39,181 bases of DNA. Origin: Candidatus Nanohaloarchaea archaeon (lineage in GTDB: Archaea; Nanohalarchaeota; Nanosalinia; Nanosalinales; Nanosalinaceae). The notes under the pieces are model-generated. The model was not told where the DNA came from. It did not search any database and saw only the letters and a list, made by a program, of their open reading frames with translations. The DNA lies in contig JBEQAY010000006.1 in the NCBI GenBank assembly GCA_041640075.1, positions 1 to 39,181 on the forward strand. The letters run 5' to 3'. Positions 375 to 37,696 of this stretch are shown piece by piece. Position numbers and translations under genes: made by a program. Positions within the stretch are counted from its first letter, which is position 1. Each line of letters begins with the position of its first letter.

Positions 375-420
375 ATAGGCATGTCCTGTAGCAAATTAAG
401 AGGGTATTAATTTTAAGTAA

Positions 421-1845: not shown

Positions 1846-1867
1846 AGGCGGAGATTTACATTCTTCA

Positions 1868-1877: not shown

Positions 1878-1989
1878 CATGCTTTCTGGCTTTTTCGATA
1901 CGGCTGTACGCCTGTACTGATATACTTTAGAAGGCAATTGTTGGGACCGAAAATTTTTATGAAGCTGAACGCAAGTCTCAGTTGAGGAA

Positions 1990-2190: not shown

Positions 2191-2203
2191 AACTACTATC
2201 CAG

Positions 2204-3799: not shown

Positions 3800-3903
3800 G
3801 TCAATAATTTCTCTAAGCTGGTTTATAACTCCTGCGCCGGCTTTAAAGCAGCGTATTTGCTTGCTTTGATATCTTATCTGGAGAAAAAATGTGTGGGAAG
3901 TGT

Positions 3904-3966
3904 TCGCCGGGGCTGGGATTTGACCCCGAAGCTCGCAGATAGGGAGCTTCTTTAATCAAATCCAGC
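3904..3966. repeat. Duplicate of the tRNA-Ser 3' end embedded in a long hairpin
   Basis: tcgccggggctgggatttga at 3904-3923 is identical to 3983-4002. Inner inverted repeat gaagctc/gagcttc; outer gctgggatttga/tcaaatccagc. Confidence 0.85.
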
Positions 3967-3983
3967 TAATGCAGAAAAATAAT

Positions 3984-4072
3984 CGCCGGGGCTGGGATTT
4001 GAACCCAGGAGACCGCGTATGGGTCACCGGTTCTCAAGACCGGCGCAATTAGCCAGACTCTGCCACCCCGGC
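3984..4072 (-). tRNA. tRNA-Ser (TGA)
   Basis: Acceptor GCCGGGG/CCCCGGC, discriminator G, anticodon loop CTTGAGA, long variable arm (GACC/GGTC), T-loop TTCAAAT. Confidence 0.95.
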
Positions 4073-4098
4073 AAACGAAGATTGTGTTTTTGCTTGAG

Positions 4099-4123
4099 AC
4101 CAGAAACTACTATGTAGTTTCGG
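4099..4123 (+). repeat. Palindromic hairpin ACCAGAAAC-tactatgta-GTTTCGG
   Basis: Perfect 8-bp inverted repeat gaaactac/gtagtttc. The flanks recur at 27412-27435 on the minus strand. Confidence 0.65.
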
Positions 4124-4176
4124 ATCCCTGCAAAGAGTAAATAGAAATGTTCTTGGAAGTTTTAAATTAGGAGAGG

Positions 4177-5247
4177 TCAGCTGCCTTTTGCTTCTTCAAG
4201 TCTCTCTTTGGCAGTCTGGGTTTCTTCTACTGACTCTTTGACTTCAGACTCTGCCTCTTCAGCTGTCCCCCTTACTTTGCCTGAGACTTTCCCGACCGCG
4301 TCCATAACCTGGTCTTTGTCTACTCTTTGAGCGGCTCCGGCGCCTGCTCCCATCGCGATAGCTTTAGGTGTGAAGCCGAAGAGTGCGTCTCCGAACTTCT
4401 TGAGCCCTACACTTGTGTTTTTGACACCTATCTTCGCCACCGTGCTCCATCCCTGTTGCTGGGTAATCAAGTGATCTATGTGTTCCTCAGTTACATGCTC
4501 TTCTTCAGCAAGTTCAACCAGGTTGTCCATGAACTGGTTTTCCTCGCTTTTCTGCTGCCTGATCTCGTTTTTGAGTTCCTGTATCTCACTTACCAGGTCA
4601 GGACTGCCTTCCTGATCTACAAATCTTTGCATTTCGTCAAAGTCGTGGTTTACAGCCCAGCTTTCGGTATCTTCCATTTCGTTCTGAAGTTCTACCTCAT
4701 CCCTCTTCATCTCCACCAGCTCCTGGTGGGACTCATCCAGATCCTGCTCAAGCCGTTCAGAGATGTCTGCGGTTTCCTTCTCAAGATCTGCAGCCTCCTT
4801 AAGCTCATCCTTCACAGCCATGATCTCTGCCAGACACCTGCCGGCTAGCTCCTGGTCAACGTTCCCGTTATCTGCCTCCTGTCTGAGCTTCTCCAGCATC
4901 TCATCGATTTCCTGTTCTTTTTCCTCGATCTCCCTGTTTTTTCCGTCAATCCTGTGCAAAACCTGTGCAAGAGCTTTAACTGATTCCTCTTCCATGCCAA
5001 GCGAATTTTTCAGTTGATCCAGAATTTTCTGGCCTTCAGAAGTTTCCACTTCAAGACCGTGTTCCAGCTCCTTGACCTGGTCTCTGGAAAGAGAATTCAG
5101 GTTGTTCACGTACTCTGAGGATCTCTGTTCATCGTTCTCGAAGTCGCCTATATCTCCCTGAACCTGGTCCAATCCTTTTGCAAGCCTTGACTCTAGAGAA
5201 TCAAGCTCTGAGATCTTAGATGTAGGTTCCTCTGAAGACTGAGACAT
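4177..5247 (-). CDS. Uncharacterised acidic coiled-coil protein (356 aa) with a Gly-rich amphipathic segment near the C-terminus
   Basis: Long E/D/Q/L-rich ORF containing 'WSTVAKIGVKNTSVGLKKFGDALFGFTPKAIAMGAGAGAA'. GTTTTTTATT lies 22 nt upstream. Confidence 0.85.
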   Translation of the reverse strand: MSQSSEEPTSKISELDSLESRLAKGLDQVQGDIGDFENDEQRSSEYVNNLNSLSRDQVKELEHGLEVETSEGQKILDQLKNSLGMEEESVKALAQVLHRIDGKNREIEEKEQEIDEMLEKLRQEADNGNVDQELAGRCLAEIMAVKDELKEAADLEKETADISERLEQDLDESHQELVEMKRDEVELQNEMEDTESWAVNHDFDEMQRFVDQEGSPDLVSEIQELKNEIRQQKSEENQFMDNLVELAEEEHVTEEHIDHLITQQQGWSTVAKIGVKNTSVGLKKFGDALFGFTPKAIAMGAGAGAAQRVDKDQVMDAVGKVSGKVRGTAEEAESEVKESVEETQTAKERLEEAKGS

Positions 5248-7662: not shown

Positions 7663-8661
7663 TCAGTGATCCCCTCTAGCCAGGTTAAAGATCCTGTTAC
7701 CGGGTTTAACACTGTCGCGCATGTCTTCAGTCAGGACTGTTTCCAGAACACCGTCATCAGATGCTTTGAAGCTGAAATCGCCTTCATCCGTCTCAAGAAC
7801 AGCCACTTCATCTCCTTCCTCCACTGCATCACCTAGGTCAAAGTTGTATCTTATCTCTCCCTCAGGCATATCCATAGAGGTATGCCTCTTCTTTAGTTTG
7901 TTGAACTCTCTGCCCGTGAAGTTTGAAGCTTCACCGGCGACAGTGTAGTCAAGTATGTTTTCTATGATCTCTCTGTAGCTGTCAGCGTAGTCATCACTGA
8001 ATGAGTGCGTCCAGCCGTTTTCGACACCGCCACCGACCTCGATGGTGAGAGCAGGAACACCTTTCTTCGGCATCACAGCACCTAGGACCTCTGAGTTACT
8101 GTGATCTCCTTCCGATGCGATGAAGTCGACACCGGAGTTCTCCACCAGGTCACGCATCTCGGATCTCTCTACAGGGAAACTTTCCGAGTGCTTGTACCGT
8201 GTCTGCGGCATCTTGACCGTCCCAGACGTACCTGTATGCATATCCAGGACCAGATCAGGATCAAGGTCATCAAGATAGCTCAGGACGTGAAAAGCAGCCT
8301 GCTGCGTAAGGTTAAGATTAGTCATATCAGGATTCTCCGACTCTAACTCCTGTAAAGCCGTGTTGTAGCACCTGTTCAGGTCTTTCTGGTCGGCACTGTT
8401 CGGCTGGTAGCTGCGAGGAGTTTTCCTCCGCACGTGTTCGGATGCGAACACGTTCGCTTCCGGAACAAAGCTCAGGTTAAGATCATCGTAGCTATCGATG
8501 AATTCTTCATCCAGAAGCTCCTCGAAAACCTGTCGAGGACCTTTCTCATCACCATGATTCTGGCAGACCACTGCAACGGTGTAATCTCCGTCTCCAATCT
8601 CGTAGGCAATTGATTCAAGGCCGTTCGCCTCGTAAATTATTTTTTCCTCAGCGTCCGCCAT
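7663..8661 (-). CDS. Succinylglutamate desuccinylase/aspartoacylase-family (M14) Zn peptidase with a C-terminal barrel-sandwich-like domain
   Basis: HGDE Zn motif, DLNR, LDMH, TIEVGG; C-terminal 'LGDAVEEGD...ASDDGV'. Confidence 0.85.
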   Translation of the reverse strand: MADAEEKIIYEANGLESIAYEIGDGDYTVAVVCQNHGDEKGPRQVFEELLDEEFIDSYDDLNLSFVPEANVFASEHVRRKTPRSYQPNSADQKDLNRCYNTALQELESENPDMTNLNLTQQAAFHVLSYLDDLDPDLVLDMHTGTSGTVKMPQTRYKHSESFPVERSEMRDLVENSGVDFIASEGDHSNSEVLGAVMPKKGVPALTIEVGGGVENGWTHSFSDDYADSYREIIENILDYTVAGEASNFTGREFNKLKKRHTSMDMPEGEIRYNFDLGDAVEEGDEVAVLETDEGDFSFKASDDGVLETVLTEDMRDSVKPGNRIFNLARGDH

Positions 8662-19614: not shown

Positions 19615-21267
19615 TTACCCTTCCCTGCTCTGTAGGTATTTTCTGACCTCGATCATGTTCCGTCTTCGCAGGTCTTCACGGTAACGGATATTCTCCATAA
19701 GACCCTCGATGTGATCCAGCAGAAGTTCGCTGCTGAGGACTTCTGGTACGTTCACATAGATCGCTCCGTCAGCAAGGAGTTCTTCAGCCTCCTCAACATC
19801 TTCACTTCTCAGGATCTTATCTGCGTCTGTATCAAGTGACAGGATTTTTCTTGAGGTTTTCTCGAGAGGTACTGTTGAAATTATCAGGTCTGCGTCCCGA
19901 TAATCTGCTTTCTCCCAGGTGCTGTCATCCATGACGTCTCCGAAAACGTATTTTTCACCTTTCTCCTCCAGGTCTGTGATCTTCTCAGGATCGTTGTCAA
20001 TCACCAGGTAATCCACTTCCTCGTCTTCCAGTGTCTCGATGATCCTTTTCCCCTGTGTGTCGTGTCCGACAACTATAACGTGGTCCTCAAGCTCGTGTTT
20101 TGACACGCTTTCCGATACCTTCTGCGGGAAGGCAGCGATATGGTCGTAACTTGAGAGCAGGTCGTAGATCCTGTCTCCGTGCTTTGCGGTGTATGAAGAG
20201 ATCATCATGGAAAGCGTTGCAGTGATGATCACTGACTGGAAAACTGCGTCACCGATTAGGTTGGAGAGATAGGCCTGGATCGTGATTATCAACGCGAACT
20301 CGGAGACCTGGTCGATGCTGAAACCTGTCAGGTATGCAGTCCTCTTGTTCTGACCCAGAGCCACGAGAGATGTGATAACCGCGAAAGGCTTCACCAGAAC
20401 CGTCAGCAAAAGCATGACTCCGGAAAGAATCAGGACACGTGGTGAAGGTATAGTCAGCAGGGCGCCGAGGGAAACAAAGAATATGGCGGAGAAGAAATCC
20501 TTCAGAGAACCTGTCGTGTCGAGGATCTCCATGTTATGCGGGTACTTGGAAACAGCCAGACCTGCCGCAAAGCTTCCGATCGCCAGGGAGATATGGAGGT
20601 ACTCGGTCAAGCTCAGGAAGCCGATTAAAACAGTTATAGAAACCAGCATCAGAAGTTCACGCGAGTTCTCGGTAAGCCTGGCCACGTAGTCAAGCAGGTA
20701 CTTCCTGAAAAGCAGGGCGGCGACCAGAAGGCCGAAACCGTGTGCAAGACTGAGTGAGACAGCTTCCAGAGTGTAACTGGATGCACCAAGAATCATAAGG
20801 AAGATTACAGCTATCAAGTCCTGGCTTAAGTGCAGAGATTCAGCCAGACGCCCGTGAGCAAGCCTTAAATCCACCTCTTTCTCCAGTAGATCTAGGCCTA
20901 CTAATGTCGAGCTTAAAGCAGTTGCGAGCACAAAAATCAGGGATTCAAAGCCAGTTAATCCAAGCAGAAAAGATAATCCAAGTGACAGTGCTGAAACAGA
21001 TGTGATCTGGATGGCAGCTGTCTTCAAACCATCCCCTGCCACGGTTTCAAGTCTTTCAGGATCCATTTTAACTCCAAATATGAATACAAGGAAGGATAAT
21101 CCGATCTGCGTGAAGTTTATCATCTCGTCTGCCGGGAAGAAGTTTCCAACGATTACTCCTGCAACAATGTACGCAGGTAGGGCAGGATGTGAGAATCTGT
21201 CAAACAGGAACAGGATTACTGAGGACGCCACGAAAACCATCGTCAATACATTGATCAGCTCTGAGAT
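19615..21267 (-). CDS. Kef-type CPA2 cation:proton antiporter with C-terminal TrkA-N (RCK) domain, copy 3; start uncertain (ATC 21267, TTG 21246 or ATG 21240)
   Basis: SST, QD, QVSEF motifs; HVIVVG RCK domain. Confidence 0.9.
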   Translation of the reverse strand: MSELINVLTMVFVASSVILFLFDRFSHPALPAYIVAGVIVGNFFPADEMINFTQIGLSFLVFIFGVKMDPERLETVAGDGLKTAAIQITSVSALSLGLSFLLGLTGFESLIFVLATALSSTLVGLDLLEKEVDLRLAHGRLAESLHLSQDLIAVIFLMILGASSYTLEAVSLSLAHGFGLLVAALLFRKYLLDYVARLTENSRELLMLVSITVLIGFLSLTEYLHISLAIGSFAAGLAVSKYPHNMEILDTTGSLKDFFSAIFFVSLGALLTIPSPRVLILSGVMLLLTVLVKPFAVITSLVALGQNKRTAYLTGFSIDQVSEFALIITIQAYLSNLIGDAVFQSVIITATLSMMISSYTAKHGDRIYDLLSSYDHIAAFPQKVSESVSKHELEDHVIVVGHDTQGKRIIETLEDEEVDYLVIDNDPEKITDLEEKGEKYVFGDVMDDSTWEKADYRDADLIISTVPLEKTSRKILSLDTDADKILRSEDVEEAEELLADGAIYVNVPEVLSSELLLDHIEGLMENIRYREDLRRRNMIEVRKYLQSREG

Positions 21268-22940
21268 CCTTCATCACCTCTGATGTTGTTCAGTTCTGAT
21301 TCCACTTCCTTAATGAAAAGATCTTCATCTTCCAGGTATAGTTCGAGGTATTCTCCAATTCTGTTTCCAGCCAAGACGTTTTCAAGTATCACGTAGTCTG
21401 CTCCAAGATCGTAGAACTCTGTTGCTTCCTCCAGTGACTGTGCTGTAACTATCTGCACAGGTTCTTCAAGTTCTTCTTCCAGTAGTTTGAGGTTGATGTT
21501 TCTTTCATCTGAGAAGCAGATCACGAACTTTGCATCTTCCAGATTTGATCCTTCTCTTATTTCTCCGTGCTTGAAGTCTCCATAGATATATTCGTATGGT
21601 GATTCTGCCAGTACCTGTGTGTTTTCGGGGTTTTTATCTATCACAAGTATATCGTGTTCTCTGTGAAGTTTTTCGCAGATTTTCTCTGCTACCTCGTCGT
21701 ATCCGATGATTACTGCGTGATCTTCAAGCCGGTTAATCTCAATATCTTTCTTTTCCTCTGATTCCAGCCACGCAAGCAGGTGTTCAATTTTTTGGTAAAT
21801 CTCCTTGTTATAGTTAATCAGGTAAGTTGAGACACCTATCGTCAGCAGCGCCATTACACTGATGTATCCGAGTATGTCGTTCCCAATGTAACCTTGTTGA
21901 ACCGCTAATGCTCCGACTACGAGAGAGAACTCACTGACCTGTGTCATGTTTATGCTTCCGATGAAAGATGTACGCGGAGTGAACTTCATCCTATCAATAA
22001 GATAAAACATGATCAAGAAGTTCCCAATCATCATAACTCCTGACGCTATGACAGCTTCAACCCAGTAAGCTTGCAGGTTATCAACTGAAAGCGTCAAACC
22101 TAGTGTGGAGAAGAAGATGACCATGAAGAAATCTGTTAAGGGCCTGATACGTTCCTTTAACTCCTCTCTATAAGGTATCTGTCCGAGACCTAGTCCTGCT
22201 AGGAAAGCACCGACCTCAACTGAGAGACCAAGATACTCAGCTAGTGAGATAAAAAGAAATGCCCACGCAATACCATGAACAAAAAATGCGTGTTTGTTGT
22301 CAGCGATTCTCCTGAACACGTCATCGAGAATATAACGGGATGAAAGTAGAGATAAAACTGCAATAAGACCAATAAGACCGATTATTTTGACAAGCGTTCC
22401 AAGAATCTGATCTGGCTGTGTTAAAGTACCTGAATTAATCAGTGCCACTATCAAGATGAGATAGATATCCTGCAGAACCAGCACCCCAACATCCAGCTTT
22501 CCAGGCAGACTCTGAAGCTCATCCTTTTCGGTTAAAATCTTTACGATAACTGGTGTGGCGCCGAAAACCGTACATAAAGCGATTATAGTTGTTTCAAAAA
22601 GTCCAAAGCCAAGCGCATAAGGTACGACAAATGCGAGGCCAGTCTGTAAAATTGTCTGTCCAACAGCTATTATCGAGATAGGTTTCAGGATTTCTTTGAT
22701 TTCCTCTAAATTCATCTCGATGCCGACTAAGAACAGCAAGAATCCCAGACCAAGTTCAGACATCAGAGTTAAGGTAGCAGTCTCTCCTACTATATCAAGG
22801 AGTGCAGGACCTAGTACAAGGCCTGTCACCAGATAAGCGAGCAGTACAGGTTGTTTCAGTTTCCGGGCAATAGTGGCTAAAATGGTGGCTGTTACCACTA
22901 CAAGCATCAGCTGGAAAGGTAAAGCGCTGTCGATTATCAT
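21255..22940 (-). CDS. Kef-type CPA2 antiporter with TrkA-N domain, copy 2
   Basis: LLFLVGIE, LQD, GAFLAG, QVSEFS, HAVIIGY, GADYVI. Confidence 0.93.
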   Translation of the reverse strand: MIIDSALPFQLMLVVVTATILATIARKLKQPVLLAYLVTGLVLGPALLDIVGETATLTLMSELGLGFLLFLVGIEMNLEEIKEILKPISIIAVGQTILQTGLAFVVPYALGFGLFETTIIALCTVFGATPVIVKILTEKDELQSLPGKLDVGVLVLQDIYLILIVALINSGTLTQPDQILGTLVKIIGLIGLIAVLSLLSSRYILDDVFRRIADNKHAFFVHGIAWAFLFISLAEYLGLSVEVGAFLAGLGLGQIPYREELKERIRPLTDFFMVIFFSTLGLTLSVDNLQAYWVEAVIASGVMMIGNFLIMFYLIDRMKFTPRTSFIGSINMTQVSEFSLVVGALAVQQGYIGNDILGYISVMALLTIGVSTYLINYNKEIYQKIEHLLAWLESEEKKDIEINRLEDHAVIIGYDEVAEKICEKLHREHDILVIDKNPENTQVLAESPYEYIYGDFKHGEIREGSNLEDAKFVICFSDERNINLKLLEEELEEPVQIVTAQSLEEATEFYDLGADYVILENVLAGNRIGEYLELYLEDEDLFIKEVESELNNIRGDEGSQS

Positions 22941-24631
22941 GCCTGATCGCTATCTTCTTCAATTTCTTTTGAAGCTTTACCTTTGATTTTCTCTAATTCT
23001 TCCTCTGTCTCCTCTAAAAATAGATCTCGATCCTCGAGATATACTTCCAAGTATTCTCCAATTCTGTTACCGGCTAAAATATTCTCAAGGATTACATAAT
23101 CTGCTCCGAGATCATACATTTCAGATGCATCATCAAAGTTTTTGGCTGTAGTAATAACTACTGTGTCATCTTCTCTTTCTTCAAGTATTACAGTATTTAC
23201 TTCTTTTTCATCGGAAAAACTAATTACAAATTCTGCTTTCTCTAGGTTTGCACCCTTTCGGATCTCTCCGTGCTTGAAATCGCCATAGACATATCTATAA
23301 CTTGATTTGGCAAGTTCCTCAGTGTTATCAGGGTCATTATCTATAACAAGTACCTCATACTCTTCAGAAAGCTTCTTACAGATATTTTTGGCTATCTCAT
23401 CATATCCGACCACGACAACGTGTTTCTTGAGCTTCTCTACAGTGAGATCTTCCTTCTCCTCGGAGTCGAAGAATAAAAGAACAGGTGCGAAAAGTTCCTG
23501 TAACTTGTCTCTGTATCTTATAAGATATGCTGAGGAACCCATAGTAAGGATTGCTATCATACTGATGAATCCCGAGATACTTGAGTCAATATAACCTTCA
23601 GTAATTGCTAAACTCGTTAGTATAAGTCCAAACTCACTGATCTGCCCCATATTGACTGAAGCTTTGAAGCTCGTTTCTGGAGTGAACTTGAACCTGTCAA
23701 TAGTGAGGAAAAATATCAGGAACTTTGCTATAACTAGGAGAAATGAAGCAATAATTGCAGGAACAAAATACTGTTGTAGTGAACTCCCAGTAATGCTTAT
23801 ACCGAAGTTCATGAAGAAGATGGCCATGAAAAGGTCTGTTAAAGGTCTAACATTTTCCTGTAACTCCCTACTGTACGGTACCTGTGCCAGTCCGATACCT
23901 GAGAGAAATGCTCCTATCTCAAGAGATAAATTAACATAATCTGCCAACGTGATAAAAAGAAATGCCCATGCAACACCGTGTGTAAAGAAAGCTAGGCTGT
24001 TACCTGAGATTTTCTTCAATATCTCGGAGAAAACATACTTTGAGGATGCCAGTGAAAGAATTCCGACTACTGTTATCATCAGGAATATCTCAAGCAGCTT
24101 CAGGGCCGCCTGCACAGGGGTTGAGAAATTTACTGTAAGAAGAGCCAGTATAATAACAACAGCCACATCCTGTACCAGTAAAACGCCTACGTCAAGTCTT
24201 CCTGGTAATGTTGTGGCTTCATCTCGCTCAGTAAGGATTTTAACGACAAGCGCTGTGGAGCTAAACATAACTGCTGCACCAATAACTATGGCTGTAATTC
24301 CAGTGAATCCAAGACCAAATGCTATCCCAGCACCGGCTATAAACGTTAAAATCATCTGGATAACAGCAATTCCTATAGTTGAACCTAAGACCTCCCGTAT
24401 CTCACTGATATCGATCTCTAGACCGATCAAAAATAGAAGAAAAACTAGTCCAAGTTCCGAGAAAAGACTAAGCATCTCTCCTCCACCTACAAGATTGAAA
24501 CCTACAGGACCTAGAAGGAGACCTGCCACGATGTAGGCGATAACTTTAGGCTGACCAGTCTTCTGAGCTAATATTCCCAGAACTGTCGCAGCACCTATCA
24601 AAAGAGCCACGGATTCAAAGCCGGTCGCCAT
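22937..24631 (-). CDS. Kef-type CPA2 antiporter with TrkA-N domain, copy 1
   Basis: LLFLIGLE, SSTA, VQD, QISEFG, HVVVVGY, GADYVI. Confidence 0.93.
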   Translation of the reverse strand: MATGFESVALLIGAATVLGILAQKTGQPKVIAYIVAGLLLGPVGFNLVGGGEMLSLFSELGLVFLLFLIGLEIDISEIREVLGSTIGIAVIQMILTFIAGAGIAFGLGFTGITAIVIGAAVMFSSTALVVKILTERDEATTLPGRLDVGVLLVQDVAVVIILALLTVNFSTPVQAALKLLEIFLMITVVGILSLASSKYVFSEILKKISGNSLAFFTHGVAWAFLFITLADYVNLSLEIGAFLSGIGLAQVPYSRELQENVRPLTDLFMAIFFMNFGISITGSSLQQYFVPAIIASFLLVIAKFLIFFLTIDRFKFTPETSFKASVNMGQISEFGLILTSLAITEGYIDSSISGFISMIAILTMGSSAYLIRYRDKLQELFAPVLLFFDSEEKEDLTVEKLKKHVVVVGYDEIAKNICKKLSEEYEVLVIDNDPDNTEELAKSSYRYVYGDFKHGEIRKGANLEKAEFVISFSDEKEVNTVILEEREDDTVVITTAKNFDDASEMYDLGADYVILENILAGNRIGEYLEVYLEDRDLFLEETEEELEKIKGKASKEIEEDSDQA

Positions 24632-28114: not shown

Positions 28115-28687
28115 TTATTCCTCTTCTTCGTCTTCTTGTTCGGCCTGTTCTTCTTCGTACTGTTCAATCCATTCGTCCTTTCCTAGGCCTGGCTGTCTCA
28201 TAGTCAAGTTGATTTTGTTTGTGTCCTCTTTACCGAGGCTTACTGCGATTATACGTGCTGTTACTTCGTCTCCGATCTCTAGAGTCTTGTCGCCTTCTTC
28301 GGAGACAAGCATGTTGTTTTCTTCGTCGAGGTTAACATATTCATCCATGATCTGTGAGACGTGGCATAGGCCGTCAAGTGGTCCTATGCGGATAAATGCT
28401 CCGAAGCTTGTAATGTCTACTACCTCTCCCTTTACGACTTCTTGAAGGTTTGGTTCGTAGACGACTGCTTCGTATTCTGCATCGTAGTGGACTCCTGCGT
28501 CTTCAGGTTCGATTTCTCCGCCTTCAATGGAGTTAACCTTGTCAACTGCAAGGATTACTCCTGCTTCCTCGGAGATGCTCCCTTCAACATTCTTTCTGAG
28601 AGCTCCTTTTACACTTTCTTCAAGATCTTCTCCCAGGTTTTCAGGTGGCACCCTGATGGAATCCGCTATATCCAGTCTCTTGTACAT
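28115..28687 (-). CDS. rpoE1: RNA polymerase subunit E' (Rpo7)
   Basis: RVPP, FGAFIRIGPLDGL.HVSQI.D, LTMRQPGLGK..W. Confidence 0.96.
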   Translation of the reverse strand: MYKRLDIADSIRVPPENLGEDLEESVKGALRKNVEGSISEEAGVILAVDKVNSIEGGEIEPEDAGVHYDAEYEAVVYEPNLQEVVKGEVVDITSFGAFIRIGPLDGLCHVSQIMDEYVNLDEENNMLVSEEGDKTLEIGDEVTARIIAVSLGKEDTNKINLTMRQPGLGKDEWIEQYEEEQAEQEDEEEE

Positions 28688-28788: not shown

Positions 28789-29166
28789 TCACTTGAGGTG
28801 CTGTTCGTTCACTTTTTCCAGGTGGTTGCCGCTTCTGACTATAACGACTTCTCTTCCTTCGTCAATTAACCTGTTCTTCAGTTCTTTGTCGTTGGTCGCT
28901 GTGACAAACCCTTCGGAGAGCCTTACAATCAGATCGTCTACTTCCCCTTCACCGGTAGTTTCCAGTACCTCTATGTCTTTGTTGTCGATAAGTTTTTCCA
29001 CAAGATCTCTGTATTTCCCCTCTTCGATGCTTTTGGCCTCTTGGACTGCGTCGTCAAGAGTGTAAAGCTCGTAGCGTCCGTAAAGCCTGTCTAACTCTGC
29101 AAATATATCGAAGTCTAGCTGGAAAGGTGCTGTAAGGAAGTTTGTATCTAGCAGGATTTTTTCCAT
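28789..29166 (-). CDS. PIN-domain protein (Fcf1/Utp24-like)
   Basis: ILLDTNFL, VDD, ATNDKELK. Conserved position upstream of rpoE1. Confidence 0.9.
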   Translation of the reverse strand: MEKILLDTNFLTAPFQLDFDIFAELDRLYGRYELYTLDDAVQEAKSIEEGKYRDLVEKLIDNKDIEVLETTGEGEVDDLIVRLSEGFVTATNDKELKNRLIDEGREVVIVRSGNHLEKVNEQHLK

Positions 29167-29230: not shown

Positions 29231-30259
29231 ATGGAATTCGATCACAGGGCTTCAAGTCTAAAACAGGTAGAAATAACCGATGAAGCAGAGATAAAATACA
29301 GTGGCCACAAACCTCAGGTCGGCGACGTAGTCGCAGTCAGGATCCAGAAAGTAAACGATACTTACAGAGAACTGGATCTTGAAGGTGGAGAGCTTGTTGA
29401 ACTGGAGGAGGGAGACATTGTCCTAGGGGTTCTAGGAAACCGTTCAGGCGTTAAAGGATATATCGGAAAAGTACCGGAAGAACTTGAGGAAGATGACTCA
29501 CTCAGCTTCCTGGGTTCTGGAGGAATTTTCGGGGACTACATCAGCGGTGCTAAGGAGCTTGATGAACCCTGTGAAGCAGAATTTCTGGGCTACCTGAAGG
29601 AAGGAGAAAAGATACTGAACACCAGGGACTTCGGTATAGAAGGTGCCAATGAGGTCGAAGTTGATGCAAATCTTGTTGCAGTAGTCGCATCAAGAATGGA
29701 TGCAGGAAAAACAACTCTTGCAAGTAAATTAATTGAAGAGCTTTCAAAGGACTACAAAGTCGCCTCTCTGAAGCTTACAGGATCAGCCAGGGAACGTGAC
29801 AGGTTGAAGATGCTTGAATCAGGTTCAGAAGCCTCATACGACTTCGTGGATGCAGGAATTCCGTCTACCGTAGAGGATTCTGAAGTTGTTCTATCCGCAG
29901 CTAAAGGTCTGATCAACGAGGTATGGGACGACGACCTTGACTTCATTGTTATCGAGTTCGGTGCAGGACTAATCAGTAATTACGGTGTCAAAGACGTTCT
30001 GAGGGATCTGGATATCAAGGAAAACGTTTTCGCAGTTTCAGGAGTTTCACTGGATGTGATGGGTGCTTACGGTCTTAAAGAGATGCTTAATGATCTTGAA
30101 TATGATGTTGACTTCATTTCAGGGCCTATAACAGATACAACGGTTGGGAGAGAAACAGTGGAGAATCATGTAGGTGTTCCAGCACTGAATGCATTCCATG
30201 AAGAAGAGATGGATGAAGCAGTCGAAATTGTGTCGAAAAAGTTCGAATCAGTTCCCTGA
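29231..30259 (+). CDS. DUF1611-like P-loop protein
   Basis: N-terminal 'GDVVAVRI...GD...GNR'; Walker-A variant SRMDAGKTT; KLTG; DFVDAG.PST; IVIEFG.GL. Confidence 0.75.
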   Translation: MEFDHRASSLKQVEITDEAEIKYSGHKPQVGDVVAVRIQKVNDTYRELDLEGGELVELEEGDIVLGVLGNRSGVKGYIGKVPEELEEDDSLSFLGSGGIFGDYISGAKELDEPCEAEFLGYLKEGEKILNTRDFGIEGANEVEVDANLVAVVASRMDAGKTTLASKLIEELSKDYKVASLKLTGSARERDRLKMLESGSEASYDFVDAGIPSTVEDSEVVLSAAKGLINEVWDDDLDFIVIEFGAGLISNYGVKDVLRDLDIKENVFAVSGVSLDVMGAYGLKEMLNDLEYDVDFISGPITDTTVGRETVENHVGVPALNAFHEEEMDEAVEIVSKKFESVP

Positions 30260-31141
30260 GCTTTCCTCAACGGCTTTCATCCTCATGTACTCCATGAATC
30301 TTTCAGCCATATCCCTGTTCAGTACTTCTTCAGTTCCTTCAACTCCTGGACAGGCGTTTATTTCACCTATGTAGAATCCTCCTTCCTCGCTTTCATCTTC
30401 GATTATATCGATACCTGCAATGTCTAGGCCGGAAAGTTTTGCGGAGTTAACAGCGGCTTCTCTCATCTCTTCAGAAGGCTCAACTTTCTGTCTTTTCCCT
30501 CCAGCAGAAATGTTTGATCTGAACTCCTCTTCGTCGCCTCCTACTCTCTTGTAGGAGTATGTTTCATCTCCAACTACTATTACCCGTATGTCTTCTCCAG
30601 GATTCTCAATAAATTCCTGGAGGCAGATATCCTGCTCGAAAAGTGTCAAAGTATCTGTTATAGGTCCTATATCTGATTCAGAGTCAGCTTTCATGACGCC
30701 TTTTCCACCGTAGCCGGAGATTATCTTGATGACGGCCGGGTAGCCAAGCATGCTCCCGGCTCTCTCGGTCTCCTTGGTCGAGAGAGTGTAAGTTGATCTT
30801 GGTACGGGTACTCCTCCTTCTGCCAGAACCTTCATCATATGGAACTTGTTTGATGCGATGGCAAGTGAATCTGACTGCATCTGGGTGTATACGCCGTTAT
30901 CTCTCAGGACCTCAGGGATGTGTTCTCCGTACATCAGGTCGCTTCCCAGTAATCTCAGGTATACAGCATCAAACTCGGTTAGATCTGTATTTGAATACAT
31001 CAGTTTGGTTCCTTCCTCGCTGTAAACCGTTCTTACGCCCTCAAGTGGAACTCCAAGAACCTTATCGAAATGTTTCTTCCCTTTCTCTATGAAGTGATGG
31101 TGCTGTGCAGATTTCTTACCGTAAATTACTGCGCATTTCAT
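30248..31141 (-). CDS. RimK-family ATP-grasp ligase (intact)
   Basis: NKF...L...GVPVP, PAVIK..SGYGGKGV, QEFI, DIRV.VVG, FRSN...GG, GIDI, EINACPG. Confidence 0.92.
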   Translation of the reverse strand: MKCAVIYGKKSAQHHHFIEKGKKHFDKVLGVPLEGVRTVYSEEGTKLMYSNTDLTEFDAVYLRLLGSDLMYGEHIPEVLRDNGVYTQMQSDSLAIASNKFHMMKVLAEGGVPVPRSTYTLSTKETERAGSMLGYPAVIKIISGYGGKGVMKADSESDIGPITDTLTLFEQDICLQEFIENPGEDIRVIVVGDETYSYKRVGGDEEEFRSNISAGGKRQKVEPSEEMREAAVNSAKLSGLDIAGIDIIEDESEEGGFYIGEINACPGVEGTEEVLNRDMAERFMEYMRMKAVEESSGN

Positions 31142-31968
31142 TCTTCATCACCTTTCAGGTAGTCTGCTACACGCCCATAGACGTTTTTACCGCTCTCCTG
31201 CTTGAAAAGTTCAAGTCTTGGATCGGTATCCATATCCATAATTCTCTCTCCCCGGATCCTTATTCGGCATATACTGGTTCCTATCGACTCTACTGCATTT
31301 TTAACTATCTCTTTCTGGGTATCTGAGATTCCGTGGTAAGAGAGACTGATTTCTCCTCCTTCCGTCCATGGAGATCCCTCTACTTTCAGGCTTATCATAG
31401 CACCATCGATGTAAAGGATATCAAATACTTCCACATCTTCCTTGTGTTCCTGTATAATCAGGAAGTCCTCCCCGTGCTCGGTTAACTCGGCAAAGGTCTT
31501 CAGGTCATCGAATTCTTCGAAAATATTCTTTTCCGCGAGTTCAAGGTTTGAGTATTTCTTTGCTACCACGGGGAAGTCCACGTTTTTACCTAGCTCAGTC
31601 ATACCTTTTTCTGTGGAGATGCTGGCTAGTCTTGGTATACTGTTGCCTTTGTCCGCCAGTACCTTGAACAGGTAAGGTTTCTTGGTCAGTATGAATATGG
31701 AGGAGGTGTCAAGATTGCATCTTACATCTTTATTGTTGATAACCTCCATCAGGACACGGGTGTAGTTGAAGGCTTTTGGTTCTGGTTTGATGTATACTGC
31801 GTCCCACTCCTCTATGTTTTCCCCATCCACTGTTACCTGAGACATTCTACCTGTTTCAGCGTCTATAAGGACTTCTGCAAGCGATTTGGAGTCTACTTCG
31901 TCGAAGTAGTTACTGAACCGTTTTTCCTCGTCTTCGAATTCATTTGCTAGAATCAGAAGTTTGCTCAT
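31138..31968 (-). CDS. Degenerate RimK-like ATP-grasp protein
   Basis: Retains KPYLFKVL...IPR, FPVVAK, IIQE. Lacks the Gly-rich loop and RSN; 'DMDTDP' replaces 'EIN..P'. Confidence 0.75.
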   Translation of the reverse strand: MSKLLILANEFEDEEKRFSNYFDEVDSKSLAEVLIDAETGRMSQVTVDGENIEEWDAVYIKPEPKAFNYTRVLMEVINNKDVRCNLDTSSIFILTKKPYLFKVLADKGNSIPRLASISTEKGMTELGKNVDFPVVAKKYSNLELAEKNIFEEFDDLKTFAELTEHGEDFLIIQEHKEDVEVFDILYIDGAMISLKVEGSPWTEGGEISLSYHGISDTQKEIVKNAVESIGTSICRIRIRGERIMDMDTDPRLELFKQESGKNVYGRVADYLKGDEE

Positions 31969-33514
31969 CGTCTTCCCCCTCTTTACGCTTTCCCTCTGGT
32001 TTCCAGAGTCTTTCTACGTTTTCCTCCCGTTTCCATTCATCAAGATATTCCTGAAGATGTTCTGGCAGCACGTTCTTCAAAATCCTGCCCTGCCTTAGGA
32101 TTCTCCGGAGCTGAAGCTCCATGTTCTTGTTGAGCTGGTCGTAAAAGGTCTCATCTGCGTAGATCAGTCCTTTACTGATTCTCCAGTAGGCTGTAGTGTC
32201 TTCCGGAGCGATCACAAGGTATCCTCGGCTTCTGCCTTCGAACTCTCCCATTGCTTCAAGCATCTCGGAGCTGTCTGCGTAGTAAACGCCTCCTGAAACT
32301 GTGTCTGCACTTGGATCTACTATAAGCAGTTCATCGCCCTCTACTCCGACGCACAGGCTGTAGTGTGCTGTATCTGCCTGTGGGAAGAGTACTGGTTTCG
32401 CGAAGTTTGGTATGATGAGTGCTCCATCGTTGAACCAGACTTTGAACTCGTCTGCAAGATCTGTTATCTTCTCGTACTCCACGTATTCTGCTTGGACTTC
32501 TCCATCTGTCAGGCTTTCAACTGCTTTGATCAGGTCCTGAGGCATCGTGCCTTTTCCGACCTCTGTACTTGAGATTTCGCCTATTTCCTCCTGGCTGTAT
32601 CTGTAGCCGAAGATGCTTAAGGCCATTTCAGCGCATGCAGGTCCGCAGTACGATGGGTCCTGCGCTATAAAGTATTTTTTGACGTCTTCAAGAGTTTCGA
32701 TGTCGTTCTGTGTTCTCTTGAACTTCAGGTCTGCGTCCATGACTTTGGAATTCTTTGTTATCATTCTGTATCCGCCGTCTGTCTCTATCTCTGTGCTGAA
32801 GAGGTCTATTCCTTTGATTTCTCCGCTTTCCTCGTCCATATAGACCTTTTCTCCTGGTCTTACGAGTCTGGTATTCTTGAGGTAGAATCCGGCTGCCAGG
32901 TTTCTGAATATATCCTTGAATCCCCAGAAGATGAGTCCGCCAGCCACGAACACTGCTGCGTATGCTGAAGCAGTGATGGCTCGGTTCAGGAATGTGTCTC
33001 CGATTCCCAGTCTCTGAAGTACTATCTGGATGACTATCAGGTACAGGAATCCTTTGACTGCAATTGAAAGCAGGTTTATCGAGTTCTTTGAGAGACCGAT
33101 CTCTCTGAAGTATGTGCTGATACCGACGCTTCCGAAGAATACTCCTCCGAAACGGGTCAGCAGGTTGATTCCTAGTATCCCGAGCATTCCGACCAGGATC
33201 ACTGAAAGTACGTTAGGTAGGTGAGATGTAAACTGCTGTGTCAGGCTTGCCGTTAGACCGGTGTTCAGGTAGAAAAGTGCTACCGCAATCACGATGGCAT
33301 CGAGCAGATAGGTTATATGACGGGTGGTCTGGTATCTTCTCTCTATAGTCTTCTTGGTCAGATCTTCTTCTCTGATCATCCAGATCTTCCGGATGACTAT
33401 TGTGATTATCTTCGCTGTGAGATGTCCTGCAATCAGTAATCCGAGTGTAACAAGTGTTCGGAAAAGTGCTTCCTGTCCTGATGCAAAGTTGGTTAGAATT
33501 TCCGGCAGAGCCAT
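31940..33514 (-). CDS. MscS-family channel fused to a papain-like (C39/phytochelatin-synthase-like) domain
   Basis: About 5 TM helices, 'GFKDIFRNLAAG', MscS beta domain 'PGEKV...GEIKGIDLFSTEIET'; then QDPSYCGPA (C290), AHYS (H384), IVDP (D400). Confidence 0.85.
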   Translation of the reverse strand: MALPEILTNFASGQEALFRTLVTLGLLIAGHLTAKIITIVIRKIWMIREEDLTKKTIERRYQTTRHITYLLDAIVIAVALFYLNTGLTASLTQQFTSHLPNVLSVILVGMLGILGINLLTRFGGVFFGSVGISTYFREIGLSKNSINLLSIAVKGFLYLIVIQIVLQRLGIGDTFLNRAITASAYAAVFVAGGLIFWGFKDIFRNLAAGFYLKNTRLVRPGEKVYMDEESGEIKGIDLFSTEIETDGGYRMITKNSKVMDADLKFKRTQNDIETLEDVKKYFIAQDPSYCGPACAEMALSIFGYRYSQEEIGEISSTEVGKGTMPQDLIKAVESLTDGEVQAEYVEYEKITDLADEFKVWFNDGALIIPNFAKPVLFPQADTAHYSLCVGVEGDELLIVDPSADTVSGGVYYADSSEMLEAMGEFEGRSRGYLVIAPEDTTAYWRISKGLIYADETFYDQLNKNMELQLRRILRQGRILKNVLPEHLQEYLDEWKREENVERLWKPEGKRKEGEDDEQTSDSSK

Positions 33515-33539: not shown

Positions 33540-33549
33540 GTTAAAAACC
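33540..33549 (-). promoter_or_regulatory. TATA-like box of the MscS-peptidase/RimK operon
   Basis: GGTTTTTAAC 25 nt upstream of the ATG at 33514. Confidence 0.5.
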
Positions 33550-33557: not shown

Positions 33558-34751
33558 TTATTCCAAGGATGTTATTTTGCCGTGACCGATTAATCGCCAT
33601 CTAGATCCTATCTGCCGGGAAATAGCTATTCTATCGCCTTCCTCAGCGCAAATTGGAACTTTTAAGTCGATTCTGACGTTCTTACCTGCCTGGGTTACTC
33701 TTCCAGCAGACTTACCTGTTCCAACGTTTATCATCAGTGGCTCGTGTTCCTTGATGTTTTCAATCTCTTTCTCTTCCTCTGAACCTACAAGACGGTCCAT
33801 TAATTCTACTTCCATCTCTACCTCTATTGAATTTTCCGGAAGATCGCCTTCAAGACCTAGTACGTTTCCTGCAAGTCCATCAGACTTTGCCATAGCAGGA
33901 TCAAGCTCTGTTTCAACTGCAAGAAGTCCTCCAGGCTTGCCTTTATCAACAACGCTGTCTCCATGTATTATACTTTTTATCTCGGTGGTAACAGTCTCCC
34001 ATTTTCCTTCATCAACCTTCCTACCTGGCTTCAGTTCAACTTCGTCACCAGGTTCAAGCTCTCCTCTCACAAGGCTTCCGCCGATAACTCCTCCAGAAAT
34101 ATCTTCTGAGAGAGTACCTGGCTTGTTGATATCGAATGACCTGGCTGCCAGCATCTTTGGTTCGGAATCAGATTCTCTTTCCGGTGTTGGAATCTCCTTG
34201 TCTACAGCCTCCAGTAGTGCGTCGATGTTGATCTCGTGCTGTGCTGATACAGGGACTATCGGTGCATCCTCTGCAACTGTTCCTTCAACAAAATCCTTAA
34301 TCTGCTGGTAGTTTTCACGTACCTGTTCCTCGTCAACAAGATCTATCTTGTTCTGTACAATTACAATATTGTCTATCCCGATTATGTCAAGTGCTGCAAG
34401 GTGTTCACGTGTCTGTGGCTGAGGACATTCCTCGTTTGCAGCTACAAGTAGAATTGCTCCATCCATGATGGCTGCTCCTGAAAGAACGTTTGCCATCAGT
34501 GTTTCGTGGCCTGGAGCGTCTACAAGTGAAACAGTCCTGATTGAATCCCCGTCTTCATCCACGTTCAGATTTCCGTCATCGTCCTGGTAGTATGTGATAT
34601 CTGCGTATCCGAGCTTGATCGTGATTCCTTTCTTTAGCTCTTCACTGTGTTCGTCTGTCCATTTGCCTGAGAGGGCTCTGGTTAAAGTTGTTTTTCCGTG
34701 GTCTACGTGACCTACAAGTCCGATGTTGGCTTCTGGTATTTTTTCTGTCAT
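33558..34751 (-). CDS. eif2g: Translation initiation factor 2 gamma subunit
   Basis: [44 protein letters not shown]. Confidence 0.97.
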
Positions 34752-35604: not shown

Positions 35605-37029
35605 ATGAGGATAAAAAGAGTTTCCGGTATACTGGGTCGCTTCCTGCAGATTTACGCATTACTGGCCGTAGTGCCGGCGCTTGTGGCGCTCTTCTACTCC
35701 GAACCGTTCTCGAATATAGCCTATTTCATTGTTACAGCAGCTCTTTCCCTTGTTTCAGGCAGTTTCCTGGCTTACTTTGGAGATGCTGATGACCCTTCTG
35801 TAAAGGATGCGATAGTTGCCACTGTCGGAGGATGGATTCTGGCAGTGATTATAGGCGCGATACCTCTAACCTCTTACATGGTGCCTCTGGACGCTGTTTT
35901 CGAGGCCATGGCAGGTTTCACAACTACAGGTATCTCCCTCCTGGCCGAACCTTCACAGCTTTCCCACTCAATGCTTTTCTGGAGGAGCTTCACCCAGTGG
36001 ATCGGGGGACTTGGTATACTCACCTTCTTCATCGCAGTTATCAGGGAGTCTGGTGGAGCATCACAGAGACTTTTCTCCGCAGAGGCTCATAAAACAGATG
36101 CAGGCTCCATAAGACCGTCACTTACAAAATCCATAATCGATCTCTGGAGGGTCTACGGGTTCGTCACGTCGGTAATCTTCGTGGTTTACGTATCATTGGG
36201 GATGAACTTCTTCAACGCCATAAACCACGCATTCACAGTATTATCCACAGGAGGTTTTTCCACGTCAGCACAGAGCATGTCAGCCTTCAACCCGGCTATA
36301 CAGACAGCAACAGTGCTTTTCATGTTCATTGGAGGTTTGAACTTTATCCTGCTCTACATGCTTCTCAGAGCAGACTGGAGACCTATGCTGAAAAACACAG
36401 AGTTCAAGGTCTACATGCTTTTCTTCCTGGTTGTGACAGTTCTAGCCATCAATGAACTAACGGCAGCACTTCCGCTTTCAGAAGCTCTTCTTCACGGGTC
36501 TTTCCAGTCAGCTGCTCTGATCTCTTCCACAGGTTATGCAACCGTCGGGGTTATGGAGTTCTCAAAGCCGTTGCTTGTATTATTCCTTTCTGTAATGTTT
36601 GTGGGAGGCTCTCTAGGTTCTACGTCCGGAGGTCTAAAGGTTTTCCGGCTGGTCACAATGTTAAAGCTTTTGAAAACCCGTCTCAGATCTTACTCTCTTC
36701 CAAAAACTGCTGTTAACAAGGTGAGGATCGATGGAGAAATTGTAAGCGATGAATCGGTGAAGACTATATCTGTTCTGCTCTTCGCCTGGCTATCTGTCAC
36801 TTTTGTATCAGCTCTTCTCATCGTGGCTTTTGATGGAGCGGATTTCATAGGTGCTTTCTCCGCCTCCATCTCTGCAGTAGGAAACATGGGACCGCTTTAT
36901 CTTTCAGGTGAAACCTTGATCGGTCTTTCCCCTGGTTCCAAAATCGTGATGATCTTCGGCATGCTCGCAGGAAGACTGGAGATGCTGCCGCTTCTGGCAA
37001 TATTTAATAGGGAAGTCATCAAACACTGA
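35605..37029 (+). CDS. trkH: Trk potassium uptake membrane subunit
   Basis: Four pore loops (GFTTTG, STGGF, SSTGY, GNMG); QWIGGLG, GSTSGGLK, GRLE. Confidence 0.95.
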   Translation: MRIKRVSGILGRFLQIYALLAVVPALVALFYSEPFSNIAYFIVTAALSLVSGSFLAYFGDADDPSVKDAIVATVGGWILAVIIGAIPLTSYMVPLDAVFEAMAGFTTTGISLLAEPSQLSHSMLFWRSFTQWIGGLGILTFFIAVIRESGGASQRLFSAEAHKTDAGSIRPSLTKSIIDLWRVYGFVTSVIFVVYVSLGMNFFNAINHAFTVLSTGGFSTSAQSMSAFNPAIQTATVLFMFIGGLNFILLYMLLRADWRPMLKNTEFKVYMLFFLVVTVLAINELTAALPLSEALLHGSFQSAALISSTGYATVGVMEFSKPLLVLFLSVMFVGGSLGSTSGGLKVFRLVTMLKLLKTRLRSYSLPKTAVNKVRIDGEIVSDESVKTISVLLFAWLSVTFVSALLIVAFDGADFIGAFSASISAVGNMGPLYLSGETLIGLSPGSKIVMIFGMLAGRLEMLPLLAIFNREVIKH

Positions 37030-37036
37030 AACAGCG

Positions 37037-37696
37037 ATGTATGTTGTGGTCACAGGGATCAATTCCCTATCTAAGAGACTGGTATCAAGACTGGAAGGCA
37101 AGCACGATGTAGTGGTTATAGATGGTGATAAGGACAGGTGTGAAAGACTGTACTCATCTACAGGAGCTACTGTCATAAACAAGTCGCCATCAACAATTTC
37201 TGCTCTCGAAGACGCAGGTGTGACCGAGGCAGATGTTTTGATAGCTTCACAGAGGGAAGATAATGAAAACATGGTTGTCTGCAGCCTTGCCCGCAAGTAT
37301 GGAGTACCTAAAGTCGTAACACGTGTTGAAGACGACGAATACACGGATGCATTCCAGTTGATCGGTGCAGACCCTGTAAGCCACAATGATATACTGATGA
37401 GTGAGTTCCTCTCGGCAGTAGAACATCCACATCTCGTTAAACTGGCAAACATTCAGGGCGACAGGGAAGTGGTCAAGGGCTCGGTCAGGAAAAACTCTGA
37501 TATAATAGGTGAGAAACTTTCAGAACTTGAAAGCAAGGACGGATTCCCGGACGATTTCCGTGTCACAGCACTTGTCAGAGAGGATGAGGAATATGTAGGC
37601 AATCAAGAGGAGGAGCTTGAATCTGAAGACGAGATAATAATGATAGGACCTCAGAGCCAGAAAGAACAGCTGAACAGCTTCTTCCAAAACCAGTAA
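37037..37696 (+). CDS. trkA: Trk potassium uptake regulatory subunit (RCK)
   Basis: Rossmann N-terminus 'YVVVTG', 'LEDAGV..AD', TrkA-C domain; adjacent to trkH. Confidence 0.9.
   Translation: MYVVVTGINSLSKRLVSRLEGKHDVVVIDGDKDRCERLYSSTGATVINKSPSTISALEDAGVTEADVLIASQREDNENMVVCSLARKYGVPKVVTRVEDDEYTDAFQLIGADPVSHNDILMSEFLSAVEHPHLVKLANIQGDREVVKGSVRKNSDIIGEKLSELESKDGFPDDFRVTALVREDEEYVGNQEEELESEDEIIMIGPQSQKEQLNSFFQNQ

Follow-up and report, generated by a model that had tools for sequence, protein, structure and literature searches.

A conserved nanohaloarchaeal operon that joins an MscS–papain fusion to an active and a degenerate RimK, with a tentative role in capped oligoglutamate metabolism

We analysed a 39,181-nucleotide (nt) stretch of DNA from Candidatus Nanohaloarchaea archaeon (GenBank assembly GCA_041640075.1, contig JBEQAY010000006.1, positions 1 to 39,181; hereafter the window). 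Three overlapping genes in it encode an MscS-type mechanosensitive channel fused to a papain-fold domain, a degenerate RimK ligase (pseudo-RimK) and an active RimK, and they meet a convergent gene for a P-loop protein. The system is real, conserved and undescribed; it works like the RimK/RimB and Rlo systems and is a member of neither. Gene order, motifs, folds and co-occurrence were established directly. As a tentative reading, we propose that the module synthesises a small N-capped oligo-alpha-glutamate at the mechanosensitive channel and breaks it down again, probably for osmotic balance.

The three core genes are nearly universal in the phylum. Pseudo-RimK was found in 65 of 70 Nanohaloarchaeota genomes. 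In a set of 40 relatives, 37 had both pseudo-RimK and RimK, and 36 gave a strong fusion match. Of 65 nanohaloarchaeal loci, 64 keep the order fusion, pseudo-RimK, RimK, and the other is truncated at a contig end. All 55 loci with a visible flank have eIF2-gamma ahead of the fusion. The core operon behind eIF2-gamma is a fixed state of the phylum and not an insertion peculiar to this genome. A first-pass annotation of this DNA had described the block as interrupting the order eif2g-PIN-rpoE1. This holds against the general archaeal gene order, but not within the phylum, where the fusion is the regular neighbour of eIF2-gamma. The four open reading frames, their strands and their overlaps were reproduced as annotated: 29 nt between fusion and pseudo-RimK, 4 nt (ATGA) between pseudo-RimK and RimK, and 12 nt between the convergent RimK and P-loop genes. 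The operon's own TATA box, TTTTTAA, is likewise in place. A TTWWAW motif starting at -36 to -24 precedes 32 of 52 fusion genes, against 1 of 52 pseudo-RimK and 0 of 55 RimK genes (1 of the 107 downstream genes together). A sigma-70 promoter scan was set aside as inapplicable to archaea.

Published data for a cultured strain also bear on this locus (here and below, cited papers were drawn on in part). PMC10266531 lists the locus of strain SVXNc as eIF2-gamma, MscS, hypothetical, two GshAB ligases, hypothetical and PIN, with reads per kilobase per million (RPKM) in that order of 3506, 3484, 486, 995, 769, 479 and 160 (supplementary Table 1). Ribosomal protein genes on the same table page range from 355 to 4358. 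Neither the fusion nor the dead ligase is mentioned in the parts of PMC10266531 drawn on. Although nanohaloarchaea have lost most of their biosynthetic pathways, the operon is retained in 65 of 70 genomes, and in this strain the fusion is transcribed at the level of ribosomal genes. This retention and high transcription point to a function that is important and so far unrecognised, coping with changes in salinity being the most plausible.

The two ligase-like genes were taken in the first pass for an active and a degenerate RimK, and the data agree. RimK passes the family profile TIGR00768 (149.1, cut-off 143.4) and stays under the cut-off of every equivalog: bacterial RimK (115.8 against 331), LysX/ArgX (114.1 against 275.6), MptN (135.9 against 350) and CofF (61 against 300). 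It also fails the glutathione synthase GshB profile (52, cut-off 272), as does the YheCD-like ATP-grasp that a relative carries next to RimK (46.5, same cut-off). Judged by these profile scores, the published "GshAB" label for the locus is a mislabel. K99, K139, GxGGxG, R186, RSN, D245 and E260-x-N262 are invariant in all 37 active copies. The closest solved structures are the RimK enzymes of E. coli and Pseudomonas, and L-glutamate is the probable substrate by analogy with these structures and with the neighbouring genes. Pseudo-RimK aligns to RimK (BLASTP E 7e-10; family profile against solved RimK, E 5e-10) and lacks the Gly-rich loop, R186, RSN, D245 and E260-x-N262. It is under purifying selection, with a ratio of nonsynonymous to synonymous rates (dN/dS) of 0.03–0.21 in seven of ten close pairs with measurable dS. 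Pseudo-RimK is therefore a conserved pseudo-enzyme, presumably a structural or regulatory partner of RimK.

The fusion consists of about five transmembrane helices and a pore helix (residues 1–214), an MscS beta-domain (215–265), a C39/phytochelatin-synthase-like domain (275–438) and a conserved helical tail (439–505). Five hydrophobic segments lie within residues 15–200, and the pore helix carries bulky aromatic residues. The MscS profile PF00924 scores 19.8 bits, 0.4 under its cut-off of 20.2. The fusion family profile matches E. coli MscS at E 4e-11, and MscS structures were matched by Foldseek with the AlphaFold model (predicted local distance difference test, pLDDT, 79; predicted template modelling score, pTM, 0.48). 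The alpha/beta cage domain that ends MscS is absent, and residues 275–438 form a papain fold instead, with its Gln, Cys, His and Asp (Q285, C290, H384, D400) all present. C39 profiles score above cut-off here (PF13529, 27.5 bits; PF03412, 24.9 bits). Structural comparison of this domain gave PeiR (Z 17.5, root-mean-square deviation 2.0 over 145 aligned residues) and the phytochelatin synthase Alr0975 (Z 15.6, deviation 3.2, 164 aligned), the latter also being the top Foldseek match. PF05023 (phytochelatin synthase) gave no match on the window fusion and is precomputed on 3 of 120 homologues. PeiR cleaves Glu-gamma-Thr-p-nitroanilide (PMC6189367), and the structural comparison supports the view that the nearest relatives of the papain domain act on gamma-Glu-X peptides. 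Close homologues of the fusion come from Candidatus Nanosalina and Nanohaloarchaea.

The stretch between RimK and the PIN gene is a slot of variable content, in which were found the P-loop gene, a GCS2/YbdK carboxylate-amine ligase, one to three YheCD-like ATP-grasps, a second RimK, MATCAP/QEGLA metallocarboxypeptidases and AstE/aspartoacylase. These identities support the view that the slot neighbours all act on glutamyl or N-acyl amide bonds, either as C-N ligases or as amide hydrolases. The P-loop gene occupies the slot in 19 of 70 genomes and GCS2 in 13; the two never occur together, and no copy of either was found outside the slot. Co-occurrence of all four genes had been set beforehand as a test of the module, and it was found for the three core genes, but not for the P-loop gene, which is replaceable. 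Genome G000 also carries a second amide ligase/deacylase set (C7:25932-29851), in which two long GCS2-like genes (453 and 510 amino acids) flank a 251-amino-acid AstE-like gene.

The P-loop protein has an N-terminal beta domain and a P-loop domain (model pLDDT 93). Structural matches, over the P-loop domain only, are TM0796 (2g0t, Z 17.8), the DUF1611 protein 2obn (Z 16.2) and DgcN (7xrj, Z 15.8). The DUF1611 profile PF07755 gave no match on it at E 1 in Pfam; Atlas clusters carry PF07755 on 11–16% of their members. Calling the gene DUF1611-like, as in the first pass, expresses a remote structural likeness and not a Pfam assignment. Among the best 80 of 521 relatives confirmed in a genome scan, arg genes stand beside the P-loop gene in 63 of 70 loci outside DPANN and the first Halobacteria match, typically in the order P-loop, argC, argB, argD, argF, argG. 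Neither ArgJ (0 of 5) nor ArgA over cut-off (0 of 5) was found in the arg-operon P-loop genomes examined. An alternative N-acylglutamate synthase has been predicted with the same gene context and a remote likeness to DgcN (bioRxiv 10.1101/2024.10.14.618325, Appendix 2). We take the P-loop family and that of ACG33_RS14135 to be one, matched by context and description, not by sequence. The P-loop protein is predicted to be an N-acyl-L-glutamate synthase, an alternative ArgA-like enzyme. Given the arg-operon context, L-Glu, as in the predicted alternative ArgA, was judged a more likely substrate than D-Glu, which DgcN acetylates. A BioD/CobQ-like ATP-dependent ligase was ranked below acyl transfer after the same context had been seen.

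ArgB over cut-off was found in none of five nanohaloarchaeal P-loop genomes, G000 included, so any N-acyl-glutamate made there is not for arginine and must go elsewhere. A SucC-like gene was considered as a marker of a succinyl donor and dropped as not diagnostic, being present in 52 of 70 genomes whatever the cassette type. Genome G000 has SucC-like and SucD-like genes with a citryl-CoA-lyase-like gene (C29:8429-12175), an arrangement that suggests citrate cleavage to acetyl-CoA; its beta subunit is the one present in 52 of 70 genomes of the phylum. Citrate is a known acceptor of RimK-like enzymes. Acetyl-CoA is available in nanohaloarchaea (PMC10266531). Elsewhere, among loci L106-L174, arg operons of Micavibrio, HIMB59, Planctomycetota and one Daviesbacteria genome have a P-loop family member in place of the missing ArgA/ArgJ; the Daviesbacteria locus has an N-acetylornithine carbamoyltransferase and no argBCD. 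A second archaeal pairing, without channel fusion, occurs in Thermoproteota (L160:6896-12445), where two tandem P-loop genes adjoin two RimK-family ligases. The P-loop family offers independent genomic support for the predicted new class of N-acylglutamate synthases.

The state of the papain domain follows the content of the slot. All 30 scorable loci with a P-loop or GCS2 gene have an intact Cys/His pair, and 26 of the 27 without one have lost it. The pattern was discovered in the first 38 loci (19 intact with a slot gene, 17 dead without, 2 unscorable), and was then examined in 27 held-out loci. Of these, 11 combined a slot gene with an intact pair, 9 had a dead pair and no slot gene, 1 had an intact pair although the slot gene was missing, and contig ends left 6 unscorable. 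MATCAP occurs in 20 of the 26 dead-dyad loci and in none of 31 intact ones, and an extra ATP-grasp in 26 of 26 and 9 of 31, respectively. The same relation was seen in Aenigmatarchaeota, in which six genomes with the P-loop gene have an intact dyad and G136, without it, a dead one. Processing by the channel-bound papain domain had been proposed; it cannot be an obligatory step, because 26 of 57 scorable loci have lost the catalytic pair but keep channel and ligases.

The history of these changes was traced with quick IQ-TREE runs supported by SH-aLRT values only. The eIF2-gamma tree covered 49 scored genomes and omitted two long frames as well as rows that were short or missing; the cassette type changed 14 times on it, with 8 concordant and 0 discordant independent pairs. 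Two eIF2-gamma frames of about 1020–1030 amino acids (L040:10426-13494 and L094) probably contain inteins. Cassette genes group by type, not by genus, and type changes often fall inside one genus. The 14 changes of cassette type on the eIF2-gamma tree, set against two to four dyad changes on trees of the cassette itself, indicate that the cassette moves as a whole and keeps its chromosomal site. The fusion tree had suggested three or more independent losses of the dyad, a reading that is weakened by the RimK plus pseudo-RimK and cassette trees. The functional coupling of dyad and slot rests on few origins (two to four).

Relatives outside the phylum place the same genes in another setting. Of 251 genomes sampled from the Aenigmatarchaeota phylum, 7 also have the three core genes, but elsewhere on the chromosome, near translation genes and not beside eS6 or eIF2-gamma; with weaker matches included, 62 of the 251 genomes are concerned. 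The representative library holds about 45 full-length fusion clusters at 50% identity, and 3 of the 20 looked up are from Woesearchaeota. Most of 40 aligned distant fusions keep the Q/C/H/D residues. A sister module was characterised in 20 Aenigmatarchaeota loci (L202-L221), which were hand-picked for tandem matches or a nearby MscS, so that their counts are biased. Within this sample, an active and a degenerate RimK occur in 18 of 20 loci, a short MscS without papain domain in 11 of the 19 with active RimK, and a RimB-type retropepsin in 10 of 20; no C39 match was found in the 20. In trees, the degenerate RimK falls beside the active copy of its own locus (SH-aLRT 98). The residues that it lacks differ from those missing in nanohaloarchaeal pseudo-RimK, so that it probably decayed independently. 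The sister module is the best support for a glutamate-chain product and for a real tie between RimK pair and MscS. Eight of the sister loci also carry a family of about 320 amino acids weakly like N-formylglutamate amidohydrolase (Atlas 0.89).

We infer the substrates, the RimK/pseudo-RimK heteromer, its docking on the channel and the osmotic role, and the proposed process comprises four steps. In the first, the P-loop protein would acylate L-glutamate from an acyl-CoA, acetyl being likelier than succinyl, and so yield an amine-blocked starter, as gene context and fold suggest. In relatives, the GCS2 ligase would supply a gamma-Glu-X starter instead. N-acyl-Glu and gamma-Glu-X are both amine-blocked with a free carboxylate, which may explain why the P-loop and GCS2 enzymes can replace each other. 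In the second step, active RimK, probably in a hetero-oligomer with pseudo-RimK, would use ATP to add what are presumably alpha-glutamates to the carboxylate of the starter. In the third, the papain domain on the cytoplasmic face would bind the capped end of a putative substrate and cut or transfer the cap-X unit. In lineages without a capping enzyme, the Cys/His pair would decay and the domain be kept for binding or as a scaffold, mostly with gain of an extra ATP-grasp and of a MATCAP or AstE carboxypeptidase. In the last step, polymerising and releasing glutamate could shift the osmotically active anion pool, and the channel might either vent short products on downshock or be gated by the bound peptide.

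A bolder and rather doubtful extension of this scheme is a peptide-coupled MscS. The papain domain, in place of the cage, would read capped oligoglutamate from a docked RimK/pseudo-RimK heteromer; the peptide would gate the channel or be clipped and vented, the capping enzymes would set the chemistry, and whole cassettes would be swapped between genera at one site. If true, this would be the first ligand- or enzyme-coupled MscS, and symbionts that synthesise hardly any metabolites themselves would have a pathway dedicated to a small peptide. The locus in any case offers a natural MscS in which an enzyme has replaced the cage, a pseudo-ATP-grasp kept as a conserved subunit, and a candidate substrate on which the papain domain can be tested.

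Several observations weigh against the capped-oligoglutamate reading, whose product, activity and physical contacts are predicted from comparison of sequences and structures only. The dyad of G067 is intact without a P-loop or slot GCS2 gene. Co-transfer of linked genes is largely responsible for the 8-to-0 count of pairs on the eIF2-gamma tree: the RimK plus pseudo-RimK tree gives two dyad changes, with 2 concordant and 0 discordant pairs (p 0.5), and the cassette tree without the papain domain gives four and does not reject a common origin of all dead forms in nanohaloarchaea (approximately unbiased test, p 0.108). Other GCS2-family genes stand elsewhere in genomes with intact (G000, G067) and dead (G010) dyads alike. 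AstE co-occurs partially, in 17 of 70 genomes, 10 of the 19 with the P-loop gene and none of the 13 with GCS2. On the P-loop domain, dethiobiotin synthetase is level with DgcN-type folds (Z 16.5), and the presumed link to ACG33_RS14135 is one of context and description. PCAT-type C39 domains are nearly as close to the papain domain as its best matches (ComA Z 15.1, PCAT1 Z 15.0; Z 14–15). Finally, no RimK stands beside the fusion in 18 Woesearchaeota-like metagenome loci, five of them with 7 kb on both sides, and catalytic residues there are mostly intact.

Other explanations were weighed as well. One, which we regard as unlikely, is reversible protein glutamylation, in which RimK would tail eS6, RpoE1, eIF2-gamma or the channel, peptidases would trim the tails, and the channel would anchor the complex and report membrane tension. 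The candidate acceptors often end in Glu (eS6 in 37 of 51, RpoE1 in 32 of 47 and eIF2-gamma in 28 of 55, against 13% of 608 acidic open reading frames of the own genome), which speaks against a free peptide as the product; acidic tails are, however, common in halophile proteins, and the last residue of the fusion is variable, being Glu in 20 of 64. In bacteria, RpsF is a target of RimK/RimB; in eukaryotes, eIF2-gamma is bound by the ATP-grasp CDC123 (PMC4431377); and the Aenigmatarchaeota operon is again near translation genes, though away from eS6 and eIF2-gamma themselves. The P-loop and GCS2 families work on free amino acids and would be unneeded for a protein acceptor. Less likely still is an exported signal or surface peptide for interaction with host or virus, each cassette type making a chemically different capped peptide that is released by the channel, with selection keeping the peptides diverse. 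The frequent type changes on the eIF2-gamma tree, often within a genus and with genes grouping by type, together with at least four slot chemistries and a replacement in place that resembles interaction loci, would fit such a role, but the swapping could equally track brine chemistry. An MscS pore passes small solutes only and opens under tension, and the gene maps contain no dedicated exporter or anchoring gene.

It is improbable that the locus holds two unrelated functions, an MscS with its own peptidase and a RimK system, linked by co-transfer only. The lone fusions of the Woesearchaeota-like loci agree with this, as does the fact that physical linkage can account for the dyad-slot pattern, and the fusion is transcribed 3–7 times above the ligase genes in the cultured strain. 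Against it stand the gene overlaps and the shared promoter seen in nearly all Nanohaloarchaeota, the recurrence of the operon at another chromosomal site in seven Aenigmatarchaeota genomes and the different short MscS within the RimK locus in 11 of the 19 hand-picked sister loci with active RimK. The published GshAB label of both ATP-grasp genes (PMC10266531), the slot GCS2 in 13 of 70 genomes, the separate GCS2 pair on C7 of G000 and the top rank of Alr0975 in Foldseek could together suggest synthesis and turnover of glutathione or another gamma-glutamyl thiol, with the papain domain as a phytochelatin-synthase-like glutathione hydrolase. This is very improbable: RimK and the slot ATP-grasp fall far below the glutathione synthase cut-off and RimK passes that of its own family, slot GCS2 is missing in 57 of 70 genomes, this one included, and the P-loop alternative cannot supply gamma-Glu-Cys. 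Maturation and export of a ribosomally synthesized and post-translationally modified peptide, with a graspetide-type ATP-grasp cyclase and a C39 leader peptidase on a transporter, is hardly credible. An ATP-grasp with a membrane-fused C39 domain is the graspetide/PCAT pattern, and the C39 Z-scores would allow it. The membrane part is nevertheless MscS and not the ABC exporter expected of a PCAT C39, and the peptidase is dead in about half of the loci. The first pass had already thought such a peptide less likely for want of a precursor nearby, and within the locus there is indeed no room for one: the gaps in the window measure just 43 and 64 nt, and in 55 of 65 loci no two called frames are more than 90 nt apart.

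The features of the module and its flanks in the window are given below.

Coordinates of the module and neighbouring features in the window
Feature	Position	Strand	Remarks
P-loop gene	29231-30259	+	342 amino acids; from list of open reading frames
Active RimK	30248-31141	-	297 amino acids; catalytic motifs and TIGR00768
Pseudo-RimK	31138-31968	-	276 amino acids; ATP-grasp fold with catalytic motifs lost
MscS-papain fusion	31940-33514	-	524 amino acids; Pfam profiles and predicted model
Papain-fold domain of fusion, intact here	32201-32692	-	Q285, C290 (codon 32645-32647), H384 (codon 32363-32365), D400
TATA box TTTTTAA of three-gene operon	33541-33547	-	27-33 nt ahead of fusion start codon
TATA-like TATTAAA	29201-29207	+	24-30 nt ahead of P-loop start; read from sequence of window alone
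eIF2-gamma	33558-34751	-	Fixed upstream flank, outside module
PIN_9 gene	28789-29166	-	Fixed downstream flank, outside module
rpoE1	28115-28687		Next after PIN_9, outside module
AstE/aspartoacylase-like deacylase	7663-8661	-	Probable accessory member; about 20 kb from operon; homologous to slot AstE of relatives (E 1.5e-56)

The AstE-like gene is present in only two of six genomes of this genus. Three tandem Kef-type K+/H+ antiporter-like genes (19615-24631, minus strand) and Trk genes (35605-37696), all named by sequence likeness, place potassium transport genes on both sides of the operon. Two very acidic, Glu/Gln-rich, coiled-coil-like proteins of 356 amino acids each are encoded at 775-1845 and 4177-5247 (minus strand). 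Families f3 and f4 (L051, L053-L057, L059, L061, L074) have a second MscS gene, a short one, which is divergent from rps6e-eif2g and immediately upstream of it.

No description of the system was found in the literature searched, which did not cover the operon survey of Iyer et al. 2009, possibly describing related gene sets; it is likewise absent from the parts of Baker et al. (bioRxiv 10.1101/2023.07.03.547478) drawn on. Its components can be compared with known ones. The fusion shares a pore helix and beta-domain with the MscS family (E. coli MscS, YnaI), but has a papain domain and helical tail for the cage domain and bulky aromatics on the pore helix. With Alr0975, PeiR and the PCAT C39 domains it shares a papain fold with Gln/Cys/His/Asp, which here belongs to a channel protein, not to a free enzyme or an ABC exporter, and has lost its catalytic pair in about half of the loci. 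The NAAG (N-acetylaspartylglutamate) and beta-citrylglutamate synthases (RIMKLA/B) and the pathway to the osmolyte NAGGN (N-acetylglutaminylglutamine amide) also use a RimK-type ligase, which adds Glu or Gln to an N-blocked or organic-acid acceptor. Those pathways rely on GNAT acetyltransferases and have no channel or pseudo-enzyme, whereas the capping enzyme here would be the P-loop protein or GCS2. The P-loop protein can be set beside ACG33_RS14135, a predicted alternative N-succinyl/acyl-L-glutamate synthase (GapMind 2026), and DgcN/DUF1611: its P-loop domain is remotely like DgcN (7XRJ, Z 15.8, against 16.5 for dethiobiotin synthetase), and its homologues stand in arg operons without ArgA/ArgJ. 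The window gene differs in standing beside RimK, in genomes without ArgB, and in giving no DUF1611 Pfam match, and the published function is itself a prediction.

The nearest systems as a whole are those of Pseudomonas and E. coli. With Pseudomonas rimABK and E. coli RimK, the module shares a RimK-family ATP-grasp with intact motifs, the pairing of ligase and peptidase and, in the Aenigmatarchaeota sister module, RimB. What sets it apart from rimABK is the addition of a degenerate RimK, of a papain domain on the channel and of a capping enzyme, as well as a score of 115.8 against the RimK equivalog cut-off of 331; RimB was not found in the own genome, which is 89% complete. To our knowledge, archaea have no bS6/RpsF. 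Free poly-alpha-Glu is made in vivo by RimK and cut by RimB (PMC11957791). The rlo operon of Pseudomonas, comprising an ATP-grasp, a membrane protein with a dead transglutaminase and a polyGlu protease, governs hypo-osmotic survival: loss of the protease kills under hypo-osmotic stress, and removal of the ligase or membrane protein rescues (PMC11957051). With its cytoplasmic ATP-grasp, its membrane protein carrying a dead cysteine-peptidase-like domain and its polyglutamate protease in a single operon, rloABC is the closest functional analogue. RloB, however, has seven transmembrane helices and a periplasmic dead transglutaminase, and Rlo includes a secreted retropepsin, which is absent here; the nanohaloarchaeal module instead joins MscS to a cytoplasmic and often active papain domain.

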